Origin: Trueperaceae bacterium
Lineage (GTDB): Bacteria > Deinococcota > Deinococci > Deinococcales > Trueperaceae
Length of the DNA stretch: 40,119 bases
Assembly (NCBI GenBank): GCA_035703635.1
Contig: DASSXV010000086.1
Location: forward strand, 1-40,119
Direction of reading: 5' to 3'
Below, in pieces: positions 3,424 to 28,656 of this stretch (within the stretch, counting starts at the first letter, position 1; every line of letters starts with the position of its first letter). Below the pieces are notes generated by a model. It searched no databases, was not told the origin of the DNA, and saw only the letters and a program-made list of their open reading frames with translations. Position numbers and translations under genes: made by a program.

Positions 3424-4392
3424 ATGAGATCAGGAATTACGGGGGGCGTCGTGAATGAAGGCGTGACGGGAGTAGTTAAGGGTGCCGCGGTCAAGGGCGC
3501 GCCAACACTGGTGATGAGGCGCCTGCTACTTACGCTGGTGGCGATCTGCACCTGCGCTTACGGCGCTGCCGCTTTCGCACAAGACGGCGCGGGCGAACCA
3601 GAAGAAACCTTCGCAGAAGGCCAGTTCGCGGCGGTGGAGCGCGACCTGGCTAACGAGGCCGCACCAGCCGTCTTCGCCGTTGGCCTCTCAGCCGGCTTCC
3701 CCGCCTACCAGACGGTTGCGCTGAACGTCTCGCTTCAAGCGCAGTTCGTAGGCGCGCAACTCAAGGGAAGCTGGACCCCCGCCGGCGTGTACTTGGGCGG
3801 CCAACTGCGCGCCTACCCGCCCATCCCTGTGCCGATCCCCCTGTACGTTGGCGTGGGCGGCGGAATCTACGGTCCGTTCGCGAGTTACCACTTCGCGGTC
3901 GGCACCCACGTGCCGCTTGGGACTGCCCTACGCCTCGACCTCGAAGGGGGAGTGGCGAACGTTCCGCAACTGGATAAGCGCGGCTGGGTGCCCCACCTCG
4001 CCGCTGGCATCAGTTACGCCTTCCCCGTCGAGCTGTCGGCAGCCACGGGCCCGACCTCGGCCACCGTCGGCGGCTCCGCGCCGCAGCCCGCGGCGCGCTG
4101 CGAGACCCCAAGCGAACCTAACCGCGAGCAGATCCCCGGCATCATCGATGACATGGTCGACGACTTCATCCTCAGCGCACGAGCGACCTACGGCAGCGTC
4201 TACACGGGCCTCAGCTACGGTTACAAGATCGGCAGCGTGCGCATCTCGGGCAAGACGGCCAACGTCAGCGTCAACTACTCGGGCAGCGTCACCGAGATCC
4301 TCACCGGAACCAGCCACAGCGCATCGGGCACGGCCAAAGTGCAGCTGACCTGGACCGGTTGCGCATGGGGTGGCGGCAGCATCGACTACTAA
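3424..4392 (+). CDS. Secreted hypothetical protein, possible small outer-membrane beta-barrel plus C-terminal domain
   Basis: Signal-peptide-like MRRLLLTLVAICTCAYGAAAFAQ (alternative start 3514), amphipathic beta-strand-like segments (LYVGVGGG, LRLDLEGG, LAAGISYAF), a Pro/Ala/Thr linker and a second domain. Confidence 0.6.
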   Translation: MRSGITGGVVNEGVTGVVKGAAVKGAPTLVMRRLLLTLVAICTCAYGAAAFAQDGAGEPEETFAEGQFAAVERDLANEAAPAVFAVGLSAGFPAYQTVALNVSLQAQFVGAQLKGSWTPAGVYLGGQLRAYPPIPVPIPLYVGVGGGIYGPFASYHFAVGTHVPLGTALRLDLEGGVANVPQLDKRGWVPHLAAGISYAFPVELSAATGPTSATVGGSAPQPAARCETPSEPNREQIPGIIDDMVDDFILSARATYGSVYTGLSYGYKIGSVRISGKTANVSVNYSGSVTEILTGTSHSASGTAKVQLTWTGCAWGGGSIDY

Positions 4393-4495
4393 CCGCCCGG
4401 CGCGCGTGGAGAAACCCACACCGGACGCGAAAATGGGTGCCACCTCACTCTTCTCACTGGCGCTGAAACGAGACTCGAAGCACGAGGGGACTGCC

Positions 4496-4569
4496 CTCGA
4501 AACGCGATAAAACCCGGTCTGTATCTGGGCGCCTGGGCCGGGTGGAGCGAGTGGCGCAACCGGTTCGAG
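4496..4569 (+). ncRNA. Cyclic di-GMP-II riboswitch aptamer (#1), upstream of the GH114 gene
   Basis: Sequence CTCGAAACGCGATAAA ACCCGGTC TGTATCTGGGCGCCTG GGCCGGGT GGAGCGAGTGGCGCAACCGGTTCGAG. It has a closing stem CTCGA/TCGAG, an 8-bp inner stem (4512-4519/4536-4543), a pseudoknot GCGCC 4529-4533/GGCGC 4553-4557, and the conserved TGGGC...GAG..AGT....CAACCG pattern of the class II (RF01786-type) aptamer. Confidence 0.85.
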
Positions 4570-4645
4570 TAGGCAAAGCCGCTTTTTCGTCTACATGTGC
4601 CGCAACTTGCTCCCGACAAGGCCTCGAGAAGCGGGGAAGCTGCAG

Positions 4646-5815
4646 ATGAACGCCAAACCCGGGAGCAGCGGCAAAGCCAAGATGATCACGTTACTCATCG
4701 GCAGTTTAGTGGTGGCTCTGGCCGCTGGCTGCTCCGCGACGGCCGCGCCGCAAGTGGCCGCCGGGATGATCCTCGCCAGCCACCACGCATCGCTTGACCA
4801 AGCCTTCCCGCTCGACGGTCAGCGCGTCAACGGCGAACTCCACGTGTTCGTGACCGAACCGGAGTCGAAGCTGAAGTTCGTCGACTTCTTCGTAGAGGAC
4901 TCTGCCGGCGAGCAAGTGAGAATCCGCCGCGACGACACCGCTCCATTCACCCCCATGCCAGACGGCGAACCCCTACGCCTTGACGACCTTGGTGAGGGCA
5001 GGCACGTCATCATCGGCGAACTGCACGACCTAGACGGTGGCACCACCGTCGCGCGCGCCGAGTTCGAAGTTGCGGCCACTACGGACCAGGCGCCGCCAAC
5101 CACACCGACCGGCGAGATCTGGCGGCCGAGGCCGGGTACTTCGTGGCAGTGGCAGCTAAGCGGGAAGCTTGACCTGAGCGTAGAGGCGGACGTGTACGAC
5201 ATCGACCTCGAGCTCACGTCGGCGGAAACCATCGCGCAGCTCCACGCCGCTGGCCGCCGCGTCATCTGCTACTTCAGCGCAGGCAGCTTCGAGTCGGTCC
5301 GCTCCGACGCCGCGCTCTTCCCCGCGTCCGTGAAGGGCAAGGCGATGGACGGCTGGCCTGAGCAGTGGCTCGACATCCGCGCCATCGACGCCCTGGCACC
5401 CGTCATGCTCGGCCGCCTCGACCTAGCCAGGGCCAAGGGCTGCGATGCGGTGGAGCCAGACAACGTCGACGGCTACGCCAACGACACCGGCTTCAACCTG
5501 CGCGCCGCCGACCAGTTGGCCTACAACCGCTGGCTGGCGAACGCCGCGCACGAACGCGGCCTGGCCATAGCCCTCAAGAACGACCTCGATCAGGTGCGCG
5601 ACCTCGTCGACTACTTCGACTTCGCCATCAACGAGGAGTGCTTCAGTTGGAACGAGTGCGAGCTGCTCACGCCGTTCATTCAAGCGGGCAAGGCCGTGTT
5701 CGGCGCCGAGTACGAACTCTCGACCGGCAGTTTCTGCTCCAAAGCGATTGCATTGAACATGGACTTCATCCTGAAGGACTGGAACCTCGGTGCTGCCCGC
5801 ACCTCCTGCAGGTAG
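4646..5815 (+). CDS. Endo-alpha-1,4-polygalactosaminidase, GH114 (Ega3-like), lipoprotein with an N-terminal Ig-like domain
   Basis: Lipobox ALAAGC and GH114 motifs WQWQL, VYDIDL, VICYFSAGS, WLDIR, KGCDAVEPDNVDGY, LKNDLDQ, FAINEEC and KAVFGAEY. Start ATG is at 4646 or 4682. Confidence 0.9.
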   Translation: MNAKPGSSGKAKMITLLIGSLVVALAAGCSATAAPQVAAGMILASHHASLDQAFPLDGQRVNGELHVFVTEPESKLKFVDFFVEDSAGEQVRIRRDDTAPFTPMPDGEPLRLDDLGEGRHVIIGELHDLDGGTTVARAEFEVAATTDQAPPTTPTGEIWRPRPGTSWQWQLSGKLDLSVEADVYDIDLELTSAETIAQLHAAGRRVICYFSAGSFESVRSDAALFPASVKGKAMDGWPEQWLDIRAIDALAPVMLGRLDLARAKGCDAVEPDNVDGYANDTGFNLRAADQLAYNRWLANAAHERGLAIALKNDLDQVRDLVDYFDFAINEECFSWNECELLTPFIQAGKAVFGAEYELSTGSFCSKAIALNMDFILKDWNLGAARTSCR

Positions 5816-5822
5816 CCGCTGT

Positions 5823-6536
5823 TCAGCCCGGCAAGCCGGTGACGTTACGGTTCGTGACCTGGACGCGCAGCCCGAGGTGGGTGCCGCGCTGCACCGCGAA
5901 GTCCGCTAAGTCTGGCTTGTTGGCGTAATCCAGGGCGTACACCTCACGGCCCGTAGCCCGCAGTAGCCGCAGGCGGGTGGCGTTGTCGAGGAGCTCGCGG
6001 CCGCGCAGCGCGCGGTAGCCGTCCTCCCACGTCGTCGAGAACGACTCGAACAAGAAGCCGTCAACGAACGGCGCTATCTCGCGGTGCAGGTGGTGACCGC
6101 GGTTGGCCAACAGGTAGCCGTCGCCGACCACGCCGCGCAGTTCGCTTAGTAGCGTCACCAAAGCCACCCGGCCGCCCGCCAACATGGGCGGAGTCTCGAG
6201 CGTGTCCAGCAGCAGCCCGGTGAAGCCGTCAGCCAACGCCACGTCTGCTTGCGCCCGCACGTGAGCCAACCACTCAGGGTGAGCCGGGTCTACGTAATGG
6301 CCGCCCCAGATGGGGTTGCGTTCGGCGAGTTGCCACGGCGCCTCGGGGCCCGTGTCCTCACCCAACGACAAGTAGGCCAACGCTTGGGTGCCGTGGGCGG
6401 CGAGGAGCTTGATGTCGGACGGGAAGTAGTGATCGGCCTGCAGTACCACGCGCTTGTGCCGTGCGAGGGTCGCCACCTCGCCGGAACCGTAGTAGACGAG
6501 GAGGTCGGGGTGGGACCTAGAGGAGGTAGACGGCAT
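5823..6536 (-). CDS. PelA-hydrolase-like (GH166/TM1410-like) alpha-1,4-galactosaminidase domain protein
   Basis: Motifs VYYG, LAYLSLGE, NPIWGGHYVD, GFTGLLLDT, LLANRG, VDGFLFES and YALDY. Its start overlaps the end of the upstream membrane-protein gene. Confidence 0.8.
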   Translation of the reverse strand: MPSTSSRSHPDLLVYYGSGEVATLARHKRVVLQADHYFPSDIKLLAAHGTQALAYLSLGEDTGPEAPWQLAERNPIWGGHYVDPAHPEWLAHVRAQADVALADGFTGLLLDTLETPPMLAGGRVALVTLLSELRGVVGDGYLLANRGHHLHREIAPFVDGFLFESFSTTWEDGYRALRGRELLDNATRLRLLRATGREVYALDYANKPDLADFAVQRGTHLGLRVQVTNRNVTGLPG

Positions 6537-7842
6537 AGCGGCCCACCTGCCTGACGCGCAACTGGGCTACGAGCAGCAAGACAAGCGCGAGGTAGGCGCT
6601 GACCACCAAGAACGGCATGCCAGCCACCGCCGCCACGCCGGCGAGCAGGAACGGGATGCTCGCCCCGGCCGGGTTCCCGAGCGCGAAACCAACGACCGAG
6701 ATGCCCAGGCTGAGGCCGAAGAGGCCGAAAGCGAACCAGTAGAAGTGCCAGCCCCCCACGCCCAGCACCGCCTCGATGATCAGCGCGGCAAGCAGCGGCA
6801 GGACGTACATGCCGACGTAAACGAACAACGCCGTGTGCGCGTACGTGCGGAACCCGGACGCGCTGGTCGAGCGCCACAGGCGCGCCGTGAGCGCAGCCTT
6901 GAGCATGATGAGGAAGCGTTGCGAGAGCAACAGCACCAGGAGCAATAGGACCCCGCCAGGCACCACGTCGCCAGCCGGGTCCTCGTGGCGCAGGAGCGCC
7001 AGGATGAGCAGCCCCTGTCCGACGCCGTAGAGGAACGGGTGCAGAGCAACGCCGATGCTGCGGCGCAACCAATCGAAGATGGGCCGCGTATCGCGCCACG
7101 CGAGCGGCAAGCACATTGCGGCCACGGCGACGACCACGATCAGTTGCGGCATCACTGCAGGCACGGGGAGCAGCGTGGCCAGTACGAGGCCAAGCAGTAC
7201 GAGCAGCGGAACGGTCAATGCCGCGACCCGCCTCTCGGCCCACAGCAGCGCGCCGACCGCGAACCACGTCAGTGTCGGGGCGAGGGTCGCTAACCCGTAC
7301 TGCAGCAGTGCCCAACTCCCGACTATCGCAAGTATGCCAAGTTGCACGAGGAACGCGAGGACGACGCCTTGCTCAGTCCGCAGCAGTTCTCCCTTGGCCT
7401 TCTGCAGCACGGCGGCGCCAACCTGCGACCACACGAGGATAACCATGGCGGGCGCCAGCATCTCGACCTGACTGAAGGCTCCGAGAAGGAAAGTGGCCAC
7501 GAACGCTAAGCCCATGGCCACCGGCGTTGCCCAATCGCCAGTGCGTTTACGTTTCACCTTGTAGCGGTCGCGTATGCGCGGCGTGCGCGCGTAAAGCTGG
7601 TGCGCCAACTCGAAGTGGCTGCTTACCCCGAAGCGCGCCAGCGCCGATGCGCTGTTGTACCCGAGCGCCTCGAGGTGGGCGACGATCTCGTACGGTCCGC
7701 TCGCCTCGAGGCAGAGGAGGTTGAGTGAGCGGCCGAGTTGGTCGACCGGCGCGCGGCTGCGGCGCTCAGGTCCGTCCCAGTTGCTAGCCGCCACTTCTGG
7801 GGGCACGTAATCGGGTGGGGTGTAAGCGACCGGCTGGCTCAC
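6517..7842 (-). CDS. Multi-pass membrane protein coupled to PelF (putative exporter/PelG functional analogue)
   Basis: About 10 or more hydrophobic segments follow a soluble N-terminus (EIVAHLEALGY...ARFG..SHFELAHQLYARTPR). GTGA start/stop overlap with pelF at 7839-7842. Confidence 0.65.
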   Translation of the reverse strand: MSQPVAYTPPDYVPPEVAASNWDGPERRSRAPVDQLGRSLNLLCLEASGPYEIVAHLEALGYNSASALARFGVSSHFELAHQLYARTPRIRDRYKVKRKRTGDWATPVAMGLAFVATFLLGAFSQVEMLAPAMVILVWSQVGAAVLQKAKGELLRTEQGVVLAFLVQLGILAIVGSWALLQYGLATLAPTLTWFAVGALLWAERRVAALTVPLLVLLGLVLATLLPVPAVMPQLIVVVAVAAMCLPLAWRDTRPIFDWLRRSIGVALHPFLYGVGQGLLILALLRHEDPAGDVVPGGVLLLLVLLLSQRFLIMLKAALTARLWRSTSASGFRTYAHTALFVYVGMYVLPLLAALIIEAVLGVGGWHFYWFAFGLFGLSLGISVVGFALGNPAGASIPFLLAGVAAVAGMPFLVVSAYLALVLLLVAQLRVRQVGRYAVYLL

Positions 7843-9254
7843 CGCGCCAACCCAACGCGGCTGGAGCGCGAGCCCATCTCGCCGTACAGTCCGCGGTAGC
7901 CGTCGTACATGCGCGAGAGCGTGAAGAGGCTAAGCGCGCGCTCCCTGGCGCCCTCACCGAGGCGACGCCTCAGCGGCACGTCGACTAATAGTTCAGCGAG
8001 GGCGGTGCCAAACTCCTCGGGCGCCCGCGGGTCGACCATGCGGCCGAAATCGCCGACAGCCTCGCCCACGCCCCCGACCTGCGTTGCCACCACTGGCCGG
8101 CCGCACATCATGGCCTCGATGGCCACGTAGGGGAAGCCCTCGGAGATGCTCGAAAGCGCCACGACGTCGGCCGCGTGATACGCGGTGTGAACGGGCTTCA
8201 CGGGGCCCTCGAAGGTCACGGACTTGGAGAGATCGAGTTCCTCGACGAGGCGTCTCACCTTGGCGTTGTATGCCTCGTTGCCCTTCGGCACCGGCCCGAA
8301 GAGCTTGAGGCGAGCCTCCGGCGCCACCTGCGTGACGGTCGTGAACGAACGGACGAGCGTTTCGAGGTCCTTGATGGGGTCGATGCGCCCGACCCACGAC
8401 ACCGTCGGCGCCTGGTCGGCGTGCCACGCCGCTTCGGGGAACGCCTCTGGCGCCACTCCGTTGTAGACCACGCGGGTCTTCTCCGCCGCGGCACCCAACT
8501 CGATCTGCCAGGTGCGGTTGAACTCGCTAACGGACACGACGAGGTCGGCGTCTTCATAGATGAGGCGAGCGAGGGCGAGATAGAAGCGTGAGCGTAGGAG
8601 CTTCATGCCTGGCGGGTTGCCTTCGCTCGTGAGGCTCAGGTAACGCTCGCGCAAGTACAGCCCGTGCTCCGTGAGCATGAGCGGGATGCCGTGCGCCTTG
8701 GCCGCCAACCAGGCCGGAATGGCCGACAAGCCGTTGGAGGTCGTGTGTGCCTGGTCGGCGACGGCGGGGATGAAGAGCAAAGGCCCTAGGGTGCCCTTTA
8801 GCCAATTGACGGATAACGCCACCTCGGCCATTGGCGGTTGTTCGCCGTTGGCGCGCCAGATGGCGAAGCGCACGGCATCCCAGGTGGACGGCTTGTCGAA
8901 ATACGGCCACAAGTCGACGGTGGTGCCGAGCGTGGCGAGGTCTAGCAGGCCCCTAGCGAAAGACTTGATGTCGTCATCTGCGAACCCGAGGAGGTTCTCG
9001 AGCCCGTTCCTGAACTCGAACTCGGCCTTGACCCCGCGGCCGGAACGCGCCGCCCGCGGGGTCCAGAGCCGCGCCGAGGTGAGGGCCCCGACGTTGGCTG
9101 GCAGAGAGTAGGCGGGCTCCGTTGGGAGCGGCCCTGTGACCTCGAGCAGGTGGTAGTCGTAGTCGGACATGCCCCTGACGAGCTGATCGCACCACGTGCT
9201 CACGCCACCCATGATCGACGGGTAGGTGCCTTCCGTTGTGAGCAGGATCTGCAT
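7839..9254 (-). CDS. pelF: GT4 glycosyltransferase PelF-like (DUF3492 N-terminus)
   Basis: Motifs LTTEGTYP..MGGVSTWCDQL, LMLTEHGLYLRER, GRIDPIKDLETL and SISEGFPYVAIEAM. GGAG upstream supports the ATG at 9254. Confidence 0.9.
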   Translation of the reverse strand: MQILLTTEGTYPSIMGGVSTWCDQLVRGMSDYDYHLLEVTGPLPTEPAYSLPANVGALTSARLWTPRAARSGRGVKAEFEFRNGLENLLGFADDDIKSFARGLLDLATLGTTVDLWPYFDKPSTWDAVRFAIWRANGEQPPMAEVALSVNWLKGTLGPLLFIPAVADQAHTTSNGLSAIPAWLAAKAHGIPLMLTEHGLYLRERYLSLTSEGNPPGMKLLRSRFYLALARLIYEDADLVVSVSEFNRTWQIELGAAAEKTRVVYNGVAPEAFPEAAWHADQAPTVSWVGRIDPIKDLETLVRSFTTVTQVAPEARLKLFGPVPKGNEAYNAKVRRLVEELDLSKSVTFEGPVKPVHTAYHAADVVALSSISEGFPYVAIEAMMCGRPVVATQVGGVGEAVGDFGRMVDPRAPEEFGTALAELLVDVPLRRRLGEGARERALSLFTLSRMYDGYRGLYGEMGSRSSRVGLAR

Positions 9255-9365
9255 GACGCTAGCTCCCGCGCACCGCGCCAGCGGCGGTGGCCACGGCAAG
9301 ACCGTGACCTCCGCGCTGGCGACGGAAGGCGAGTGGTGGGAGTGCGGCCACTAGCATGCGCAGTC

Positions 9366-12356
9366 CTAGTCCTTGAACTCGAAGCGGGCGCCGATGGTTG
9401 CGTCGGCACTGAGCGTGATGGTGCAGGTGACGCCGTCGCAGGCGCCAGTGAAGCCGTCGAAGGTCGAGCCGAGCAACGCGACGGGCGCGAGGGTGATGGT
9501 CGTGCCGGCCTTAACCTCGATCTCGCACTCGTCGATGCAAGCGGCGCCGTTCGGGCTGGTTATCACTACCCCGAAGCCGCTGCCGGACAGTTCGAGCGTC
9601 AGGGTGTGCATCACGACCTCAGGGTCCACCGCGGGTGCGACGGTTACCGTCGTTTCGCGAATGACATCTGCGCCGCCCGTCCAGCTAGCCACGAGTTCGT
9701 AAGTCGTGGTTGCCGTTGGGTTGACGGCGTGGTTGCCGCTGGCCGGTAGGCCCGTTACGATTTCCGCGCTGTCCTTCACGCGCAGGGCGATGTTCGTTGC
9801 GGTGCCGGTGACGGTCCAGTTGAGCTGGGTGCTCTCGCCCACCGTGATGGCGGCTGGTGAAGCGCTGAAGCTGGTGATGAGGGGTGCAGGCGTGACGGCG
9901 ACGGTGACCTCGGCCACTACGTCGGAGCCGCCCGTCCAGCTAGCCACGAGTTCGTAAGTCGTGGTCGCCGTTGGACTAACGGTGAGACTGCCTGCGTCAG
10001 GGAGGCCCGCTTCAACCACGCTGCCGCCCTTCACGCGCACCGCGAGGCTGGTGGCACTGCCGGTGACGCTCCAACGGAGTTGCGTGGTTTGGCCGGCATT
10101 GATTGCAGCTGGGTCAGCGGCGAACGTTCCGATGACGGGCATCACGGGCGGCGCTGCCGGTCCGACACTGAACGTCACGGACTGCCCGGCGCTGAACTCG
10201 CGCTGCGAGATCACGCGACCGTTGTAGGCGAGGTCGGTCGAGCCGCTGCCAAGCGACGCTCCCGTGAAGAACACCGGCCCGGCGTTCGCGGCGGTGAGGG
10301 TCACCGTGTTCGTCATGCGGTCCCATACGCCGGTGACTCCGGTGGCTAGGAACTCGGTGCGGGCGCGCACGTAATCGCCGGAGGCGTCGTTCGTGTACGA
10401 GAGGAGCGGCTCGTTGGCCACCGCGGCGTACTTGGTGAACAAGGCTGCGGTCCAGTCGTAGAGCGTTGATCTGCCCGCCTCGTACTCGTAGAAGTTGGGG
10501 ATGTGGAAGTAGTGCGGGTACGGCGAGCCGGAGAGAAGATGGACCAGGGCGATGTCGGTATCGAGATCCAGGATCTCTTCGTAGCTGAGCGGCTGAGTCA
10601 GTCCGGGGATGGGCTCAGTGCCGCCCGGCCCGTACGTCATGTTGTAGGCCTGCGTAACGGCTTCAGGCGTGGTGACGGTGGCGAACAGGTTAGTCGGCCA
10701 CCGTGGCACTAGGAACACGGCAGCGTTTATCGGGTGCTCGATGCCGCAGGCCCAGCAGTCGGGCTCATGGCTTGGGGTCGACATGTTGGACGCCAGGTAG
10801 CTGCGGCCACTGTCGACCACGGCTTGCAGCAGGTATGGGCTCGAGTGATCGAGGCCGAAGTCGACCTTCGGGCCGGTGTCCGGCCCTCCCGGCGCGTACC
10901 AGCCGAGGCCGGAGATGTCGCCAGTAACGAGGCTACGTACCGAGTTGGTCGGGTCGAGGCCCATGGCGGTGGCGAGGTTGTCGCTATTGCTGATCTCGGT
11001 GATTATCTCGTCATAGTTCGGGCCAGGATCGGGCAGTTCAGGGATCCAGTCCATGTACTCATGGCTCCAGGTGTGGTTCACCCAGCGGAACTCGCCAGCC
11101 AAGCACCTCGTCATGCTCGAGAGGGTGTGAGACGAGGCGGGTAGCTCGCAGTCGATGATGCTGCTTGGCTCGGCGTTATCACCGTTGAACGCCATCGCCC
11201 AAGTGAAACCTGGGGCAATGCCGCCGCCTAGCGTGCGTAGGCCCTGTTGTTGGGCCACGAGGCTGTAGGCGTCCTGGGCATCCAATTCAAACTCGACGTC
11301 TTGGCTGATACCGCCAACTCCAACGTCCCAGAAGCCGGTCTTGCTGAACCAGTCGTCGACGTCGGCCTGATAGCTGGCGCGCCGCTCGCCGATGTGCACG
11401 CCACGCATCGCCCAACGCAAGAGCGAGGGCCCGATCTGTTGGGTGTAGATGGCTGGTGTGTTCGATGCGCCCCAGGCCGGGTTGTTGTACAGCATCGTCA
11501 CGCGCTCGCGCCCGTCGGTCTCGGTAAGCAAGGCGAGGATGTCGTCGCCAGCCATGAGCAGTGGAGTGGTGCCGGGCAGGGGGTCGCGGCTCGGGAATCC
11601 ATCGCTTCCGTACACGTCGATCTCGCTGCCAGCGGGAAGGTCGTTGAATACGGTCAGGCCAGCCGCCGTCGGCGTTATGACCGCAGAATCCAAATCGGAC
11701 GGCGTCCAACTGCCCACTCCGAGATCCTCAGGTGCACTGTAGGGCGCCCCGTAAAGCGTTGCCTGGCGCACCCCGTAGTCGCGCTCGTAGTTGAACAGGA
11801 GCTCCCACTCGCCTGAGTCCAGTGCGGACTCCCAAGCTGGGGCGTAGACGAGGTTGCTGGTGCTAAGCAGTATGGCCTGGTAGCGCCCGACCCCGTCACC
11901 ACGCACGAGCCTGTCGGGCGTGAGGGTCTCTTCTGACGCCACGAACCAGTCGTACGGCGTGCCCGTCTGCTCGAGCAGCGCTATCCAGGCGCCGGTGGAG
12001 GGCTCTATCTCCCCCGCGTTGTTGGTCGCTGAGATGAGCAGCGCCTTCATCTCGACTTTGTCGCCCACCCCGAGCGGCCTCAACCACGTTTGCGGTTCGC
12101 CCTCCGGAATGGTGCCGAGGTGGAGCGGAGCGGAGTAGAACGGACCGCGTGGGACAACAACCGAGGGATTCCACGGCTCAGTCGCGTGGGTTGGCGCTGG
12201 CACTTCCTTGCGCGCGTCTTCGGCTTTGGTGACTGCGGGGCTGGTGCTGCATGCAACGAGCACGGCGGCTAGCGCAATGAACGTTATGAGCATGCGTAGC
12301 GCCGCTACCGGCACTTGTCTGCGGTTGGGGTTCCGGCCCTGCTTCACGCGGCTCAC
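9366..12356 (-). CDS. Agd3-like (CE18) polysaccharide de-N-acetylase lipoprotein with C-terminal Ig-like repeats
   Basis: Lipobox AVLVAC; Agd3-type motifs YERDYGVRQ, DVDDWF, FRWVNHTWSH, LVPRWPTN and HYFH; two ~85-aa Ig-like repeats and a terminal B-repeat-like domain (FDGFTGAC.G.TC). GTGA overlap with the upstream gene. Confidence 0.8.
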   Translation of the reverse strand: MSRVKQGRNPNRRQVPVAALRMLITFIALAAVLVACSTSPAVTKAEDARKEVPAPTHATEPWNPSVVVPRGPFYSAPLHLGTIPEGEPQTWLRPLGVGDKVEMKALLISATNNAGEIEPSTGAWIALLEQTGTPYDWFVASEETLTPDRLVRGDGVGRYQAILLSTSNLVYAPAWESALDSGEWELLFNYERDYGVRQATLYGAPYSAPEDLGVGSWTPSDLDSAVITPTAAGLTVFNDLPAGSEIDVYGSDGFPSRDPLPGTTPLLMAGDDILALLTETDGRERVTMLYNNPAWGASNTPAIYTQQIGPSLLRWAMRGVHIGERRASYQADVDDWFSKTGFWDVGVGGISQDVEFELDAQDAYSLVAQQQGLRTLGGGIAPGFTWAMAFNGDNAEPSSIIDCELPASSHTLSSMTRCLAGEFRWVNHTWSHEYMDWIPELPDPGPNYDEIITEISNSDNLATAMGLDPTNSVRSLVTGDISGLGWYAPGGPDTGPKVDFGLDHSSPYLLQAVVDSGRSYLASNMSTPSHEPDCWACGIEHPINAAVFLVPRWPTNLFATVTTPEAVTQAYNMTYGPGGTEPIPGLTQPLSYEEILDLDTDIALVHLLSGSPYPHYFHIPNFYEYEAGRSTLYDWTAALFTKYAAVANEPLLSYTNDASGDYVRARTEFLATGVTGVWDRMTNTVTLTAANAGPVFFTGASLGSGSTDLAYNGRVISQREFSAGQSVTFSVGPAAPPVMPVIGTFAADPAAINAGQTTQLRWSVTGSATSLAVRVKGGSVVEAGLPDAGSLTVSPTATTTYELVASWTGGSDVVAEVTVAVTPAPLITSFSASPAAITVGESTQLNWTVTGTATNIALRVKDSAEIVTGLPASGNHAVNPTATTTYELVASWTGGADVIRETTVTVAPAVDPEVVMHTLTLELSGSGFGVVITSPNGAACIDECEIEVKAGTTITLAPVALLGSTFDGFTGACDGVTCTITLSADATIGARFEFKD
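9672..9974. repeat. Intragenic direct repeat from a tandem Ig-like domain duplication
   Basis: GCCGCCCGTCCAGCTAGCCACGAGTTCGTAAGTCGTGGT is identical at 9672-9710 and 9927-9965 and extends to 47/48 nt. The 255-nt period equals 85 codons (PTATTTYELVASWTGG twice). Confidence 0.95.
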
Positions 12357-13180
12357 GGCTCCGTTCCGAGGTTGACGAGGCGTAACGCGCCGACTACCAG
12401 AAGCGCCGAGCTGGCGCGCGCCTGGGTCGTGGTCAGGCGCCCGAGGGTGTCGAGTGAACCCGTGCCAAAGCCAGCGTTCGTGAGTTCGGCGCGCGTAGCC
12501 TCAGGGAAGCTGAAGGCACCGAGGGAGTCGTCAGCCACGCAAGAGAAGGCAACGGTGCCGTCTGAGCCGACGAGGATGATCGCCGAGTTGGCGCCGCCGG
12601 GCGTCCAGCCGAACCGCGTATTGACCGTGATGTTCGCGGCGTCGAACCCCTGCAACGTGGGCGTCTTGCCGGTGGCGACCGTCACGTTGTTGAACGCGGG
12701 GAAAGCGCCAGTGGCTGCTAGTTGCAGAGAAAGGCCGTCGGTCGGGAGCGGCGCAAGGGCCGCTGCTAGTGAGTAGCGACCGTCCGGGCCGCGCTCTAGC
12801 GAACCGTAATCCGTGGCGCCCGTAAGGAGCTGGATGGTGCCCGCTAACAACCGATTGCCGCTGGGCGCGCCGATCACGCTGCCGCCGGTAGGGGCCGCGG
12901 CAGCCGACACGTCACACGTGCCGACTTGCGCACCGAACGGGCTGCCCATCAGCTCCTCCGCGCGCTTAGTGGTGAGCTCAACGAAGGTCGCCTGACCAGC
13001 AGGCGCCCCGACCTCAGTGGCCTGGCTGAGGAGCACCAAGCCAACGCGGTCAACGGACGCCGGGTCCGGCTGCTGCTGCGGGCGGCAACCAACTAACGTG
13101 AGGGCGAGGAGCGCCAACGCCGCCGCGGCGCCACGAGAGGACTTGCGCAAGAGTGAGTACTTCGACCGATGACTCTTCAT
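12353..13180 (-). CDS. Hypothetical lipoprotein, first gene of the Pel/GAG-like operon
   Basis: Basic N-terminus plus lipobox LTLVGC, a beta-rich body, and GGAAGGA/GGAG RBS-like sequence upstream. Confidence 0.75.
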   Translation of the reverse strand: MKSHRSKYSLLRKSSRGAAAALALLALTLVGCRPQQQPDPASVDRVGLVLLSQATEVGAPAGQATFVELTTKRAEELMGSPFGAQVGTCDVSAAAAPTGGSVIGAPSGNRLLAGTIQLLTGATDYGSLERGPDGRYSLAAALAPLPTDGLSLQLAATGAFPAFNNVTVATGKTPTLQGFDAANITVNTRFGWTPGGANSAIILVGSDGTVAFSCVADDSLGAFSFPEATRAELTNAGFGTGSLDTLGRLTTTQARASSALLVVGALRLVNLGTEP

Positions 13181-13199
13181 CTACTCCGGTCCTTCCAGT

Positions 13200-13272
13200 C
13201 CCCGCTCGGTTGCGCTACTGGCTAGACGTGCTCCAAGCGCCCAAATTGGGAGCACGCTTCATCGCCTCGGGT
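13200..13272 (-). ncRNA. Cyclic di-GMP-II riboswitch aptamer (#2), leader of the Pel/GAG-like operon
   Basis: Minus strand reads CCCGAGGCGATGAAG CGTGCTCC CAATTTGGGCGCTT GGAGCACG TCTAGCCAGTAGCGCAACCGAGCGGGG. It has a perfect 8-bp inner stem, a pseudoknot GCGCT/AGCGC, a closing stem CCCG/CGGG and the conserved TGAAG, TTTGGGC and AGTAG.GCAACCG elements. It ends about 20 nt before the ATG. Confidence 0.9.
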
Positions 13273-13521
13273 TGTGAGGTTGGCCCCCCGTAACAATTGG
13301 GCCGGCTGTCTTGTTAGTGATCCTAGAGGCGAACCTCTTACAGGGCTCTTAACTCTGTGCGCTGGTGCCAGGTGCCTGGCACGGCTCGGGGGAAGCGGTC
13401 GTCTTGCCTTGTAACTACTTTGCCACAAGCGCCTGGCTAGAATCGACTTACGGTCGGGTAGCCTGGTCTTGGGCCAGCCTCGCACATCGAGCGAGCCCTA
13501 ACCTCGAGGAGGACAAGAACG

Positions 13522-15114
13522 ATGCTGAAACGTCTGACGATCCCGGTCCTGATCACGTTGCTCGTGGTTGCCTGTCAACCGAATCCAGCGCCCGTGAAGC
13601 TATCCATCAGCTCTCGCATGCCAGCCGCCAGTGCCGCTAACGTGCCAGTAGATAGTGTCGTGGCCGTTACCTTCAACGTCGCGATCAAACTTGCGACGCT
13701 AGATGACAACTTCACCCTCTCACAGGGCGACACGCCCGTGGACGGCACCGTTGTCTACGACCCGAGCACGCGCGTAGCAACCTTTACCCCAACCGCCCCG
13801 CTGCTCAACGACACGGTTTACACCGCGACGGTGGGCGCGGCCGTCGAGAGCCACCAGGGTGCGCGCCTAGGCGCGGACTCTAAGTGGTCGTTCACCACCG
13901 CAAGCGTCGTCATCGTGCCAAGCGTCACGAGCGTAACCATCGTGGGCGGCGACTTCTCCCTCCTCCCAGCTGAAACGGAAACCCTCCTCGTTGATGTCGT
14001 AGTCGTTGATGGCGCGGACGCTGCCGTCGAGTGGACCAGCAGCGACGACACCGTTGCCACCGTCGACGCCTCAGGCGTCGTGACCGCAGTGGCGCCTGGC
14101 GCTGCCACCATCACGGCGACCAGCACCTTCGACAACACCAAGTCGGACAGCGTGACCGCAACCGTCAACCCGTCCCCGGCCGTCACCGCGGTTGAGATCG
14201 ACCAGGCCACTCCCGCCACCACCGTCGGCGGCACCGTTACCCTCACGGCCACCGTTACGGCCGTCGGCGGCGCTGACGAGAGCGTTACCTGGGCGTCCGC
14301 CGCCGACGCCGTCGCCACCGTCGACGCGGCGAGTGGCGTCGTCACCGGCGTGGCCTCAGGCACCGTCACCATCACGGCCACCAGCACCTTCGACGCCAGC
14401 GTTTCCGACACGGTCGATGTGGTCGTTGCGGAGCCGTTGAGTTACACCGCTTCCGCCTACCCAACCACAGTCGGTGCCGCCACCATCGACAACGTCATCT
14501 CTATCCTTCCGCCTACTACCACCTCCGCTGGTCATGGCGCACTGTCATACGCCCTCACTGGCGGAGCACTGCCCCCAGCGTTCGTCGTCGACAACGGTGT
14601 GATGGCACCAGAGACCTATGAGATCGTCCTCGATGAGAATACGGGCGAGATCAGGGGCAGCACCGGCTGGCCGGGCGTCTTCACCGGCACCGTGACGGTC
14701 ACGGACGAGCTCGGACAGACCGCCGACCTGACCTTCTCGATCACCGGCGTGCTCGACTTCGAGGTCTACAACTCCGAAGGCACCGCCACCCAGTCCACTT
14801 TCCCGTACACCAGCACCACCGAGACCGTGGTTCCTGGAGACCGTATCCGTGTCAGCGGCGTTGACAACACCCTGTGGTTGCCAGCCGACTTCGCTTCGGG
14901 CCTCGCCTTCTCTCTCAACTTCACTAGCGTTGTGCCAGACGCAGGTGGAGCTCTCCCGGATGAGGCATTCCTGGTCAACGCTAGCGAGGGCGTCGTAAGC
15001 CTAGGCACCGCCCTGGACACTCAGTTGTGGTCTTACGGTCTGGTGCTCGATTACGACGGCGCCAGCGTCACCGTTCCGCTACTCTTCGAGGGCGAGAACT
15101 ACGTCGTCCCCTGA
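13522..15114 (+). CDS. Surface lipoprotein with Ig-like domains (SbsA/Big_5-like, two Big_2, further Ig-like domains)
   Basis: GAGGAGG RBS; lipobox LLVVAC; ATFTPTAPLL.DTVYTATV (Big_5-like); two W.S....VATVDA.GVVT.VA.G..TITATSTFD repeats (Big_2). Confidence 0.85.
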   Translation: MLKRLTIPVLITLLVVACQPNPAPVKLSISSRMPAASAANVPVDSVVAVTFNVAIKLATLDDNFTLSQGDTPVDGTVVYDPSTRVATFTPTAPLLNDTVYTATVGAAVESHQGARLGADSKWSFTTASVVIVPSVTSVTIVGGDFSLLPAETETLLVDVVVVDGADAAVEWTSSDDTVATVDASGVVTAVAPGAATITATSTFDNTKSDSVTATVNPSPAVTAVEIDQATPATTVGGTVTLTATVTAVGGADESVTWASAADAVATVDAASGVVTGVASGTVTITATSTFDASVSDTVDVVVAEPLSYTASAYPTTVGAATIDNVISILPPTTTSAGHGALSYALTGGALPPAFVVDNGVMAPETYEIVLDENTGEIRGSTGWPGVFTGTVTVTDELGQTADLTFSITGVLDFEVYNSEGTATQSTFPYTSTTETVVPGDRIRVSGVDNTLWLPADFASGLAFSLNFTSVVPDAGGALPDEAFLVNASEGVVSLGTALDTQLWSYGLVLDYDGASVTVPLLFEGENYVVP

Positions 15115-26273: not shown

Positions 26274-26551
26274 TCCAGCCCGCACACTACACCGCTGACG
26301 GTTGCCTCGAGGCCGGCGGCGTCATAGGGCCGGTCTAATCAGATGGGGCCTTAGTCATAGAACCCTCTCATCTGTGGGCTGTAACTTAGTCCTTGTCGGG
26401 TTCCATTAGGGCCCGCCACTCGAAAGCGATGATGCGTGCGCCGCAAAGTGGGCGCTTGGTGCGCGCGGAGCTAGTAGCGCAACCGGTCGAGTTCTTTTCG
26501 TCTTTTCAAGAACTGGTTAAGTACCCACCTAGTGGACATCTGGAAATGGTG

Positions 26552-26625
26552 TCCGGAGGCTATGAGCCGTGTATCCCGACTTGGGCATCAAGGGACACGG
26601 GGAGCCAGTGATGCAACCGGCCGGA
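26552..26625 (+). ncRNA. Cyclic di-GMP-II riboswitch aptamer (#3), upstream of the PL9-like lipoprotein
   Basis: Sequence TCCGGAGGCTATGAG CCGTGTATCCC GACTTGGGCATCAA GGGACACGG GGAGCCAGTGATGCAACCGGCCGGA. It has a closing stem TCCGG/CCGGA, an inner stem with a 2-nt bulge, a pseudoknot GCATCA/TGATGC and the conserved TTGGGC and GAG..AGT..TGCAACCG elements. Confidence 0.88.
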
Positions 26626-26667
26626 TGGTGAAGTCAGGTTGCATCCAGACTGTGGGAGCAGGTTCGG

Positions 26668-28656
26668 ATGCGTACAGCAATTTCAGCAAATAGAACCGCC
26701 AGCAGCGTGCTGGCACTGTTTCAACCGAAGTATCTGAAGGGGATTGCCATAATGGCGGCAATCGGACTATTAGCCGCGTGCGGACAGGTCACTAGCGTCC
26801 CTGGCGGCGATGAAACTCAGATCGAACCAACGTGGTCGTGGAGTCCGGTCGGCTACGTCGACGACACCGTTGGGACGGCCGCCGTCGACGACGCCCTCAC
26901 GGTGCACGGCTCCGGAACGGACATCTGGGATGGCCGTGACGAGTTCTTCTACGTCTACACCAGCCTCGTCGGCGACGGCTCACTGTCGGTCAGGGTCAAG
27001 GACCTGCAGGCCGACAACCCGTGGGCGAAAGCTGGCGTCATGCTCCGTGAGAGCCTCGACCCAGACGCGCGCAACGTGCTCCTGCACATTTCCAGGGAGA
27101 ACGGTTCGGTACTGCAGATGCGCCCTGAGACTGGCGGAGCAACCATCAACGATGCGGGGCACGACACGACCATGGCCGTGGGCGGCTGGGTGCGCCTCAC
27201 CCGCACCGGCGACACCGTCCTTGGTGAACTATCTCGCGACGGGGAGAGCTGGACCGAACTCGGCAAGTACGACATCGCTTTGGGCGACAACGCCCTCATC
27301 GGCTTCGCGGTGACTGCGCACGACCGCGGCAAGGTAGCGACGGCCGAGTTCACCAACGTGAGGCGCAACTGGCGCGGCGTTCCAGGCGCTAGGCCGGTCG
27401 TCAAACCAGAGCCGCCAGTGACTCAGCCGACCCCACAGCCCCCGGTCACCGACCCGACCCCAGTGCCGCCCGTCCTCGGGGGCGCCGAGTACGACCTGCC
27501 GCCCGCTACCCTCTACGTGGCCACCAATGGCAACGACAGCAACTCGGGCCGCACCGCTAGCGCGCCGCTTAGAACCATGTCGAAGGCCACCTCCATGGTG
27601 CAGCCAGGTGACGTCGTTTACATTCGCGGAGGCGTCTACCCGATCAACGTCGCGTTCAGAACCCCCGGTACGGCGACCAAGCCCATCGTGTGGGCCTCTT
27701 ACCCGGGCGAGACGGCGATCTTCGACGGCGCAGACCAGAGCCGTGGTAGCAGCCAGCACCGCGTGTGGGTCGACGGCGTGTCCTACAACCACTTCGTGAA
27801 CTTCGAGGTTCGCAACAGCCCTCAGCAGGGCATATTCGTGCGCAACGCCAGCGATAACCTCTTCCACGGCCTCGTCGTCCATGGCAGCAACGGCAGCGGG
27901 ATCCAGAACTACAGCGGCAACCGCAACCGCTACGAGTACCTAGTCACCTACGACAACTTCGACACCGTCAACTCCAACGGCAAGATCGGTGAGGACGCCG
28001 ACGGCATCGGTATCTCAGCAGGTGACTCCAACGTCATCAGTCGCGTGATCAGCTACTACAACTCAGACGACGGCATAGACGCCTGGCGGTCCACGAACAC
28101 CATCATCGAGCACTCCGTGGCGTTCGATAACGGGCGCGGCGCCAACGGCAACGGCAACGGCTTCAAGCTAGGCGGCAACAGCGAAGATAACCGTACGGTC
28201 GCGCGCTTCAATATCGCGTTCTCCAACAAGGCCTCCGGCTTCAGCCAGAACACCGGCCGCAACATCACCGTCTACAACAACACCGCGTATGGCAACTCTG
28301 GCCCCAACTACGACGTTGGCTCGACCGTCACGGTGCGCAACAACCTGTCGATCGGCGGCCGCAACAACGTGTTGAGCAGCGCGATCAGCGGCAACAACTC
28401 GTGGGACTTGGGCATCACCGACGTACGCGTACTGAGCACCGACCGCAATAGCCCCGACTTCCTCTCATTGCGCGCAGACAGCCCCGGAATTGACAGGGGT
28501 AGCGACGTCGGGTTGCCGTACCTCGGCGCGGCCCCGGACCTGGGTGCGCTCGAGTACCAAACGACGATCGCCGACCTGCTCGACTCCGAGCGGCTCCCGA
28601 TCACCGAGATCGTCCGTGCGGCCATCGACTCGGCGACCTTGGCGCTAGGGCACTAG
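26668..28656 (+). CDS. Lipoprotein with a concanavalin/DUF1349-like domain, Pro-rich linker and right-handed beta-helix (PL9 lyase-like)
   Basis: Lipobox LLAAC; GSGTDIW.GRDEF and WAKAGVMLRESL; YVATNGNDSNSG; DADG, NSDDGIDAW and NGNGFKLGG (PL9 Ca-binding aspartates and catalytic Lys); APDLGALE. Confidence 0.8.
   Translation: MRTAISANRTASSVLALFQPKYLKGIAIMAAIGLLAACGQVTSVPGGDETQIEPTWSWSPVGYVDDTVGTAAVDDALTVHGSGTDIWDGRDEFFYVYTSLVGDGSLSVRVKDLQADNPWAKAGVMLRESLDPDARNVLLHISRENGSVLQMRPETGGATINDAGHDTTMAVGGWVRLTRTGDTVLGELSRDGESWTELGKYDIALGDNALIGFAVTAHDRGKVATAEFTNVRRNWRGVPGARPVVKPEPPVTQPTPQPPVTDPTPVPPVLGGAEYDLPPATLYVATNGNDSNSGRTASAPLRTMSKATSMVQPGDVVYIRGGVYPINVAFRTPGTATKPIVWASYPGETAIFDGADQSRGSSQHRVWVDGVSYNHFVNFEVRNSPQQGIFVRNASDNLFHGLVVHGSNGSGIQNYSGNRNRYEYLVTYDNFDTVNSNGKIGEDADGIGISAGDSNVISRVISYYNSDDGIDAWRSTNTIIEHSVAFDNGRGANGNGNGFKLGGNSEDNRTVARFNIAFSNKASGFSQNTGRNITVYNNTAYGNSGPNYDVGSTVTVRNNLSIGGRNNVLSSAISGNNSWDLGITDVRVLSTDRNSPDFLSLRADSPGIDRGSDVGLPYLGAAPDLGALEYQTTIADLLDSERLPITEIVRAAIDSATLALGH

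Follow-up and report, generated by a model that had tools for sequence, protein, structure and literature searches.

Class-II cyclic di-GMP riboswitches lead both units of a putative Pel- and galactosaminogalactan-related exopolysaccharide locus in a Trueperaceae bacterium

Introduction

How might cyclic di-GMP (c-di-GMP) control a Pel-type exopolysaccharide synthase when no PelD is recognisable beside it? This question is raised by a locus in contig DASSXV010000086.1 of a Trueperaceae bacterium from soil or sludge (phylum Deinococcota; GenBank assembly GCA_035703635.1). The whole stretch of DNA analysed, hereafter the window, is this contig over 40,119 nucleotides, handled as contig C49 of genome G000, a draft of 2.9 Mb in 88 contigs with 97.65% completeness, whose nearest named relatives are metagenome-assembled genomes of Trueperaceae and Deinococcaceae. 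The locus encodes a PelF-type glycosyltransferase together with putative counterparts of Agd3 and Ega3, two enzymes of the fungal galactosaminogalactan (GAG) pathway. How c-di-GMP activates Pel-type synthases is described as still unclear, even for PelD, in passages of a published account (PMC8461298). A preliminary description of the locus, made from the sequence alone, had proposed a novel hybrid of fungal and bacterial systems in which RNA sensors replace the control exerted by PelD. The present analysis places the locus in a type of cluster that is known, as a regulatory variant that looks new, the 'hybrid' architecture being already in print.

Results

Class-II c-di-GMP aptamers at both units

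The locus consists of two convergent units, a GH114 lipoprotein gene on the forward strand and a five-gene operon on the reverse strand, each led by its own c-di-GMP-II aptamer. In order, the operon encodes a lipoprotein, an Agd3-like deacetylase of carbohydrate esterase family 18 (CE18), PelF, a membrane protein and a PelA-hydrolase-like protein (Table 1). The term lipoprotein here refers to lipobox-like L-x-x-C motifs read by eye, not to signal-peptide prediction. A site was assigned to the riboswitch family RF01786 when its covariance score reached the curated gathering score of 53.5 bits over the full model. A cmscan of the whole window returned four matches, all full length (model positions 1–84) and all above this score, and both locus leaders were among them. 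RF01786 was the best-scoring model of its clan at all four sites (59–65 bits). The gene set, the convergent layout and the class of both leaders were as given in the preliminary description.

In each unit, the aptamer stands immediately 5′ of the leading gene. The GH114-leader aptamer is also present at the same position in related loci L008, L009, L010 and L012, and the operon-leader aptamer is conserved in L008, L009 and L010. Because the aptamers directly precede the first genes, and because this arrangement is kept in relatives whose membrane proteins are 60%–67% identical, chance does not account for the pairing of aptamers with these genes.

The two leaders are built differently. The operon aptamer ends 13 nt 5′ of the ATG, and a Shine–Dalgarno (SD) sequence, GGAAGGA, begins approximately 3 nt past helix P1, with GGAAGG conserved among relatives; given this distance and the position of the SD sequence beside P1, the leader has room for translational control only. 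The start of the GH114 gene was placed by alignment with relatives 73 nt 3′ of the aptamer, where the SD–ATG block is conserved. A small conserved hairpin overlaps the GH114-leader aptamer, and it could be a competitor of P1, since the 3′ arm of the hairpin doubles as the 5′ strand of that helix. All five aligned GH114 leaders (the window, L008, L009, L010 and L012) allow an equivalent hairpin to be drawn, judged by eye and without a covariation statistic. A scan of positions 4300–13600 found five terminator-like sites where 5.9 were expected, none of them in either leader, and one promoter-like site where 0.8 were expected.

Matrix synthesis generally increases with c-di-GMP. All four class-II c-di-GMP switches tested in Clostridioides difficile are 'on' switches, according to the passages on them in McKee et al. 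(2018; PMC6200980). On these two grounds, we lean towards an operon switch that would be 'on' at high c-di-GMP, as the somewhat more probable of the two polarities.

Contigs assembled from RNA libraries (four runs of two studies, at least 95% identity) covered 25 to 30 of the 30 bins into which positions 4300–13600 were divided, which is compatible with expression in sludge communities. In one run (X15), adapter sequence precedes a contig whose first base is also that of the GH114 aptamer (4491), a solitary weak hint of either a fragment end or a transcript start there.

Table 1. Features of the locus and the tandem aptamer site of the window
Feature	Position	Strand	Evidence
Conserved small hairpin, CGAGGG-loop-CCCUCG	4483..4499	+	Pairing judged by eye
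c-di-GMP-II aptamer, GH114 leader	4491..4572	+	RF01786 65.3 bits, E 1.5e-12, model 1–84
GH114 (Ega3-like) endo-alpha-1,4-polygalactosaminidase-type predicted lipoprotein	4646..5815	+	Pfam PF03537 280.5 bits; longest open reading frame (ORF) from 4595
PelA-hydrolase-like protein (GH166-like TIM barrel), 237 aa, without signal peptide	5823..6536	-	PDB PelA 5TCB E 2.9e-15
Membrane protein, 441 aa, helical N-domain and 12 helices, predicted MOP-flippase fold	6517..7842	-	AlphaFold2 (AF2) model, VIA-align
PelF-type GT4 glycosyltransferase (DUF3492 + GT1), 471 aa from ATG 9254	7839..9254	-	NF038011 178.3 bits
Agd3-like CE18 deacetylase, 996 aa, predicted lipoprotein	9366..12356	-	Family profile, fold, catalytic motifs
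First operon gene, 275-aa predicted lipoprotein without known family	12353..13180	-	Conserved position in relatives
c-di-GMP-II aptamer, leader of the five-gene operon	13194..13278	-	RF01786 59.2 bits, E 8.2e-11, model 1–84
Tandem c-di-GMP-II aptamers	26413–26497 and 26546–26631	+	62.4 and 62.6 bits

Agd3-like deacetylase and two hydrolases

Judging from its family profile and predicted fold, the 996-aa protein is CE18-like and of the Agd3 type, in agreement with the preliminary description. Its score against Pfam CBM87_Agd3 (PF25116) exceeded the cut-off (30.9 versus 27.6 bits). A profile of 43 sequences, comprising the window protein and 42 homologues, matched Agd3 (Protein Data Bank [PDB] entry 6NWZ) with an E value of 3e-43 in three stretches that cover all three domains. 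An AF2 model of residues 60–720 had a mean predicted local distance difference test (pLDDT) score of 93.9, and Foldseek ranked 6NWZ first with this model (E 1.5e-35, query-based template modelling score 0.73, 715 columns, 16% identity). Beyond the three-domain fold of Agd3 (CBM87, CE barrel and C-terminal beta domain), the protein has two extra Ig-like repeats. The motifs CM1–CM4 of Agd3 supply a base and metal Asp pair, an H-x3-H pair, a base-coordinating Arg and an acid His, as set out in the relevant passages of Bamford et al. (2020; PMC7229062). All of these residues are present in the 996-aa protein (D334/D335, H428/H432, R552 and H618). Among the 43 sequences, both Asp residues, the first His of the pair and the last His were conserved in 43/43, the second His of the pair in 42/43 and the Arg in 31/43. 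In the Foldseek ranking, the second entry was human heparan-sulfate N-deacetylase/N-sulfotransferase 1 (NDST1; E 4.5e-18), whose deacetylase domain the family profile matched with an E value of 2e-5, and some relatives of the Agd3-like protein carry the Pfam domain HSNSD-CE.

The product of the forward-strand gene scored far above the Pfam GH114 cut-off of 27 bits (Table 1), and can be classed as Ega3-like from its similarity to solved structures, again as first described. The best matches in the PDB were the Ega3 entries 6OJB (E 7e-57, residues 159–375) and 6OJ1 (E 1e-56), whereas the match to the alpha-galactosidase entry 9EP6 was far weaker (E 1e-23). Passages on the fungal enzymes state that Ega3 is specific for deacetylated GAG and that in Aspergillus the genes agd3 and ega3 share their regulation (PMC7229062).

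The last operon gene encodes a protein related to the hydrolase domain of PelA (PelA_h). In addition to 5TCB, it matched the PelA entry 9CGY (E 3.4e-11), with weaker matches to the GH114 entry 9EP5 and to TM1410, and its Pfam GH114 score (20.7) fell below the cut-off of 27. The protein keeps a Glu aligned to the position at which PDB chains 5TCB and 5TSY differ, which we take to be the catalytic Glu of PelA_h. In both its similarity to solved PelA_h and this Glu, the sequence agrees with membership of GH166, the family of the PelA hydrolase domain. No hydrophobic N-terminal segment that could direct export was found in this protein, nor in any of 19 relatives (19/19; maximum 15-residue hydropathy 1.19). 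Its gene overlaps the 3′ end of the membrane protein gene in nearly all loci.

PelF and a predicted membrane partner

The PelF assignment also held: the protein exceeded the cut-off of 100 bits of the NCBIfam equivalog NF038011 and combines DUF3492 (153.5 bits) with GT1, and it is the single PelF over the cut-off in the genome. Alignment with relatives moved its start to ATG 9254. With this start, the overlaps at three of the four operon junctions noted earlier are correct (4, 4 and 20 nt), and the gap of approximately 109 nt between the Agd3-like gene and pelF is the sole non-overlapping junction.

The gene that follows encodes a membrane protein without any Pfam or NCBIfam family. Its AF2 model (pLDDT 84) consists of a cytoplasmic helical N-domain (about residues 25–90) followed by 12 helices. 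When the model was compared using VIA-align, the top 14 chains were all MATE, MurJ or WzxE (Z 10.3–17.2 over approximately 300 residues), and the next chain scored 6.7. The transmembrane part is accordingly predicted to have a MOP-flippase fold. With this fold, the membrane protein may serve in PelG's place; for PelG, a 12-helix fold of the MOP/PST type is predicted. Among 1.84 billion cluster representatives, the family profile picked out 569 members of this membrane family at E ≤ 1e-3; in a Pfam scan of 39 relatives, 37/39 had no family at all and 0/39 matched PelG. The profile matched 84 of 364 Deinococcota genomes, G000 included. Since many of these match over residues ~20–95 only, the N-domain is the best-conserved part of the protein.

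Complex prediction for PelF and the membrane protein gave ipSAE values of 0.66, 0.64 and 0.67, whereas none of three controls scored above 0.00; at least 82% of contacts recurred between runs and the partner pLDDT was at least 78. The ipSAE mark applied is reached by 116/157 solved complexes and 2/215 mismatched pairs, and is only a rough guide here because our own alignments were used. On the membrane protein, the predicted interface comprises N-domain residues 46–63, 77 and 91–94, a cytoplasmic loop (319–331) and the C-terminus. Predicted contacts include residues 51–59 and 319–331 of this protein and, on PelF, residues 139–147 and 201–226. PelF is therefore predicted to dock on the N-domain, and the prediction supports binding.

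Two library proteins also contain the N-domain. In P0163 (600 aa; it may end at a contig edge), PelF domains are followed by the N-domain at residues 496–596, and in P0252 (876 aa), a Spherulin4 (Sph3-type) domain stands in front of it; both are possible natural fusions joining these parts. Longer fused forms of the membrane protein were not found among 8000 candidates, which is weak evidence. An 'ERRS' stretch of the N-domain was considered as a c-di-GMP-binding motif and dropped, as it was not invariant in a wider alignment.

Missing Pel families and the c-di-GMP network of the genome

Pfam scans of the 27 window ORFs revealed no PelB, PelC, PelD, PelE or epimerase family, consistent with the preliminary description, and no Spherulin4 (Sph3). 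In the genome, the PelG family (PF16933) had no match at E ≤ 0.01, with a control match in Thermotoga, and PelG exceeded the cut-off in 0/364 Deinococcota genomes. A genome search for PelD_GGDEF (PF16963) also gave no match, but its control matched nowhere either, so that absence from the genome does not follow; the search for c-di-GMP-I riboswitches was uninformative for the same reason. The epimerase sought beyond the locus exists, as a bona fide galE lies on contig C31 (398.7 bits).

The genome encodes 11 GGDEF proteins. No PilZ domain was detected in it at E ≤ 0.01, with control matches in five genomes. It contains seven class-II aptamers at five sites, all five of which precede matrix-type genes. 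As far as a receptor search covering PilZ can tell, this bacterium may recognise c-di-GMP mainly through its riboswitches.

Three of the five sites lie outside the locus. The tandem pair at 26413–26631 of the window precedes a gene for a 662-aa beta-helix protein (26668–28656) and a GT4 gene, and lies within a Wzx/Wzy/GT4/AsnB polysaccharide cluster that fills the window from 13.5 to 40 kb. Tandem aptamers could sharpen the response. On contig C53, another tandem pair (73761–74011, L069) is followed by a GSDH-type gene and two genes of GH26-like type. The aptamer on contig C23 (83792–83876, L070) is a single one and precedes approximately 15 co-directional genes, among them those for Big_7 and FG-GAP proteins, an ABC exporter, an epimerase, NeuB, a cytidylyltransferase, GT2, Wzy, GT1 and AsnB. 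The content of this cluster suggests a polysaccharide containing nonulosonic acid.

Conservation of the gene core and of the riboswitches

The genes for PelF and the membrane protein are adjacent in 20/20 related loci, and the PelA_h-like gene follows in 19/20. The Agd3 gene is adjacent in 10/20, or in 11 once the stretch analysed in genome G359 is extended, and GH114 is present in 10.

Within the window's genus, the locus occurs in 5/17 other genomes. The GH114 aptamer is present in all six carriers (G000 and these five), and the operon aptamer in 5/5 carriers in which the 5′ end of the operon is on the contig; in the sixth, G317, the contig is cut at this end. In G303, the operon aptamer lies further upstream, before a duplicated lipoprotein–Agd3 pair. 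This tandem duplication on contig C35 (L067/L049) encodes a protein of 272 aa and one of 1796 aa that contains CBM87 and CE domains, and is situated between the aptamer and the usual operon.

Outside this genus, riboswitch gating was found in G359, of a second genus, where the genes are partitioned differently: one aptamer precedes Agd3-GH114-OEP-OEP-DUF4874/4832, and another lies approximately 560 nt before PelF, the membrane gene and PelA_h. The two TolC-like OEP genes and the gene for the DUF4874/DUF4832 protein, which follow Agd3 and GH114 (C9:141500–153000, L068), are candidates for an outer-membrane export route, which the window's locus lacks. No RF01786 match was found on the locus contig in 23/29 genomes with a full-length membrane homologue, including seven of genus g58 (family f5), some of these contigs being short and the two weakest RF01786 matches not being listed. 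Riboswitch gating is conserved within the lineage and recurs with a different gene partition, and it is not general to the system.

Other features of the locus

The 275-aa lipoprotein encoded by the first operon gene had no Pfam family, and a search of the Atlas returned unnamed clusters only and no structure. The protein is kept at the same position in L008–L011 with 38%–59% identity. At the other end of the operon, the GH114 and PelA_h-like genes converge with their stop codons 7 nt apart (5815–5823) and without a terminator-like hairpin in between, and transcription from either unit may read into the other. One RNA-library contig of run X15 crosses this junction. Upstream of the GH114 unit, a 322-aa ORF without a Pfam family (3424–4392, forward strand) ends approximately 100 nt 5′ of the aptamer.

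Discussion

The notion of a novel fungal–bacterial hybrid, put forward in the preliminary description, is not tenable. Passages of Bamford et al. (2020, Nat Commun; PMC7229062) report that 45 species of bacteria, some of them in Deinococcus-Thermus, have homologues of Agd3, and state that all agd3 operons identified there contain a glycosyltransferase of the cytoplasm together with a multi-spanning membrane protein, usually with GH114. Supplementary Data 2 of that paper lists 'Agd3, GTB, TM, GH114' in Thermus brockianus, 'GH114, Agd3, GTB, TM, GH114' in Meiothermus ruber and related sets in Deinococcus. The gene set and order of the window locus are the same as in these bacterial agd3 operons. 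In contrast, the window locus is riboswitch-led, while the passages on the bacterial operons name no riboswitch, though they were not searched for the term, and Truepera does not occur in two supplementary files of the paper. No report tying a c-di-GMP riboswitch to pelF, agd3 or GH114 was found among the open-access papers searched. The membrane protein is unclassified in the passages of PMC7229062, to which the predicted MOP fold, the docking by the N-domain and the signal-less last hydrolase are additions. What looks new is the riboswitch gating, the MOP-fold protein whose N-domain is predicted to dock PelF, the lack of a signal peptide in the last hydrolase and the placement of all aptamers before matrix genes.

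The locus shares with Pel, as encoded by PelA–G in Pseudomonas aeruginosa and pelDEA(DA)FG in Gram-positive bacteria, a PelF-type GT4 synthase, a PelA_h-like domain, a predicted de-N-acetylase step and a predicted dependence on c-di-GMP, and its likely product, as judged from its genes, would also be a polymer of N-acetylgalactosamine and galactosamine (GalNAc/GalN). It is not a canonical pel operon, as only PelF and the PelA_h-like protein are recognisable and no PelB, PelC, PelD, PelE or PelG family was detected; moreover, its hydrolase stands as a protein of its own and lacks an export signal. The deacetylase is of CE18 (Agd3 type) and not of the type found in PelA or in PelA_DA (CE26), treated in passages of PMC13254593. 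The c-di-GMP sensors at the window locus would be RNA leaders, whereas the Pel system uses the GGDEF I-site of PelD, as the relevant passages state (PMC8461298). From the GAG cluster of Aspergillus fumigatus (Uge3, Gtb3, Agd3, Ega3 and Sph3), the locus has putative Agd3 and Ega3 homologues with catalytic motifs and a GT4 synthase with a membrane component. It differs from that cluster in that synthase and membrane part are separate, a PelA_h-like protein stands in place of Sph3 (GH135) and the cluster contains neither Sph3 nor a UDP-hexose 4-epimerase. Class-II switches of C. difficile, as treated in passages of PMC6200980, are of the same aptamer family and likewise precede surface and adhesion genes. 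Those switches were measured at the transcript level, whereas the operon aptamer of the window abuts the SD sequence and start codon, neither leader has a terminator-like site, and the target is a synthase-type polysaccharide operon with its hydrolase.

Taken together, the locus probably belongs to the agd3-type exopolysaccharide clusters of bacteria described earlier, which are relatives of Pel and of fungal GAG, and its two units would be controlled by c-di-GMP at the level of expression. Cytoplasmic PelF would polymerise a GalNAc-rich alpha-1,4 chain from UDP-sugars, which the galE elsewhere in the genome can supply. It would be held on the 12-helix MOP-fold protein through the conserved cytoplasmic N-domain and loops. 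This protein, outside the PelG family, would be the likely export component in the place of PelG and perhaps also of PelD/E. Outside the cell, the Agd3-like CE18 lipoprotein would strip part of the N-acetyl groups to yield a cationic, adhesive polymer, and the GH114/Ega3-like lipoprotein would trim its GalN-rich stretches. The signal-less PelA_h-like hydrolase would be translationally coupled to the membrane protein. Because class-II c-di-GMP riboswitches lead both convergent units, c-di-GMP would act on the expression of both.

Several observations weigh against this interpretation. A cytoplasmic PelA_h-like hydrolase clashes with the periplasmic role of PelA and would also differ from Sph3, and the window has no recognisable component for export across the outer membrane. 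The proposed transport role of the membrane protein follows from its predicted fold alone; it had no PelG match (PF16933) at E ≤ 0.01, and Foldseek by itself gave weak MOP matches (best E 0.015, template modelling score 0.44). Taken singly, the Agd3-like protein fell below the Pfam Agd3_CE (PF25115) cut-off (23.0 versus 27.6), and a phmmer search of the 996-aa protein against the PDB found no Agd3 chain and one spurious match (E 0.36). With single-protein searches this borderline, the assignment needs both the family profile and the fold. When nine leaders were folded with P1 forced or free, the accessibility of SD and AUG shifted in no consistent direction. The RNA-library contigs give neither strand, level nor regulation and cannot prove transcription; DNA carry-over is possible. 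The identity of the sugar is likewise drawn from homology only.

The strongest of the competing explanations is that the riboswitches are an evolutionary replacement of PelD, such that control by c-di-GMP has passed entirely to RNA from an allosteric protein receptor. This accords with the gating of both locus units, the lack of a PilZ match and of PelG or PelD_GGDEF matches in the genome, and the position of all seven class-II aptamers before matrix genes. The PelD_GGDEF search, with a control that matched nowhere, does not show absence from the genome. The proposal put forward in the preliminary description stands to the extent that neither a PelD nor a PelG family was found in the locus, and is not supported by the wider comparison: PelG, the canonical partner, is missing phylum-wide (0/364) and not here alone, and the core of PelF, membrane protein and PelA_h lacks RF01786 on its contig in 23/29 genomes, with the reservations on short contigs and two weak matches given above. 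Since both of these patterns extend well beyond the gated lineage, riboswitch control is a lineage-specific addition, not a one-for-one replacement. Furthermore, a post-translational control point may exist, because the N-domain of the MOP-fold protein is predicted to dock PelF and could itself be a regulatory site. We therefore regard a full replacement of PelD as rather doubtful. A more far-reaching view is that PelF, the MOP-fold protein and the signal-less hydrolase, a trio translationally coupled in 19/20 loci, form a minimal synthase without PelD, PelE and PelG, maybe nearer than either Pel or fungal GAG to the ancestor that both share, with the N-domain as a new recruiting and possibly sensing module and, in the window's genus, with two switches of different platforms that time synthesis and trimming separately; this is speculative and, in our estimation, unlikely.

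The two switches might also act in opposite directions, with synthesis 'on' at high c-di-GMP and GH114 'on' at low c-di-GMP for dispersal. A matrix-degrading enzyme would be a natural dispersal factor, and the platforms do differ, the GH114 leader having a 73-nt spacer and a hairpin sharing a P1 strand, and the operon having its SD sequence beside P1. Such a push-pull arrangement is nevertheless quite unlikely: in G359, one aptamer leads Agd3 and GH114 together, neither leader showed a direction in the folding test, the four C. difficile class-II switches tested are all 'on' according to the passages cited (PMC6200980), and agd3 and ega3 are described as co-regulated in Aspergillus (PMC7229062). 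Still less probable is a different polymer, for example one based on N-acetylglucosamine, or the use of the extracellular enzymes to degrade foreign GAG- or Pel-like matrix. The sequence of a GT4 enzyme does not reveal its donor specificity, the fold alignment shows low identity to fungal Agd3 (16%) and GH114 includes the alpha-galactosidase 9EP6, but Ega3 is by far the best GH114 match (7e-57 versus 1e-23), the deacetylase and hydrolase genes are co-directional and overlapping with those for the synthase and the MOP-type protein in 10–11 of 20 related loci, and the same co-occurrence appears in the passages of Bamford et al. (PMC7229062). That the aptamers are variants sensing another ligand seems very improbable. 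The Rfam clan does hold related variant families, and five lower-scoring overlapping clan matches were suppressed; against this, canonical RF01786 was the best of the clan at all four sites, at full length and with 59–65 bits, and the genome encodes 11 GGDEF proteins.

An agd3-type cluster with c-di-GMP control added at the level of expression would provide a natural case of a Pel-type synthase apparently controlled more simply, by two short leaders. The predicted interface with an unclassified MOP-fold family offers a concrete model for the anchoring of PelF at the membrane. On the scale of the genome, the 11 GGDEF proteins, the lack of a detected PilZ domain and the seven class-II aptamers, all before matrix genes, suggest that this phylum, which has been little studied, holds a second-messenger regulon centred on RNA.

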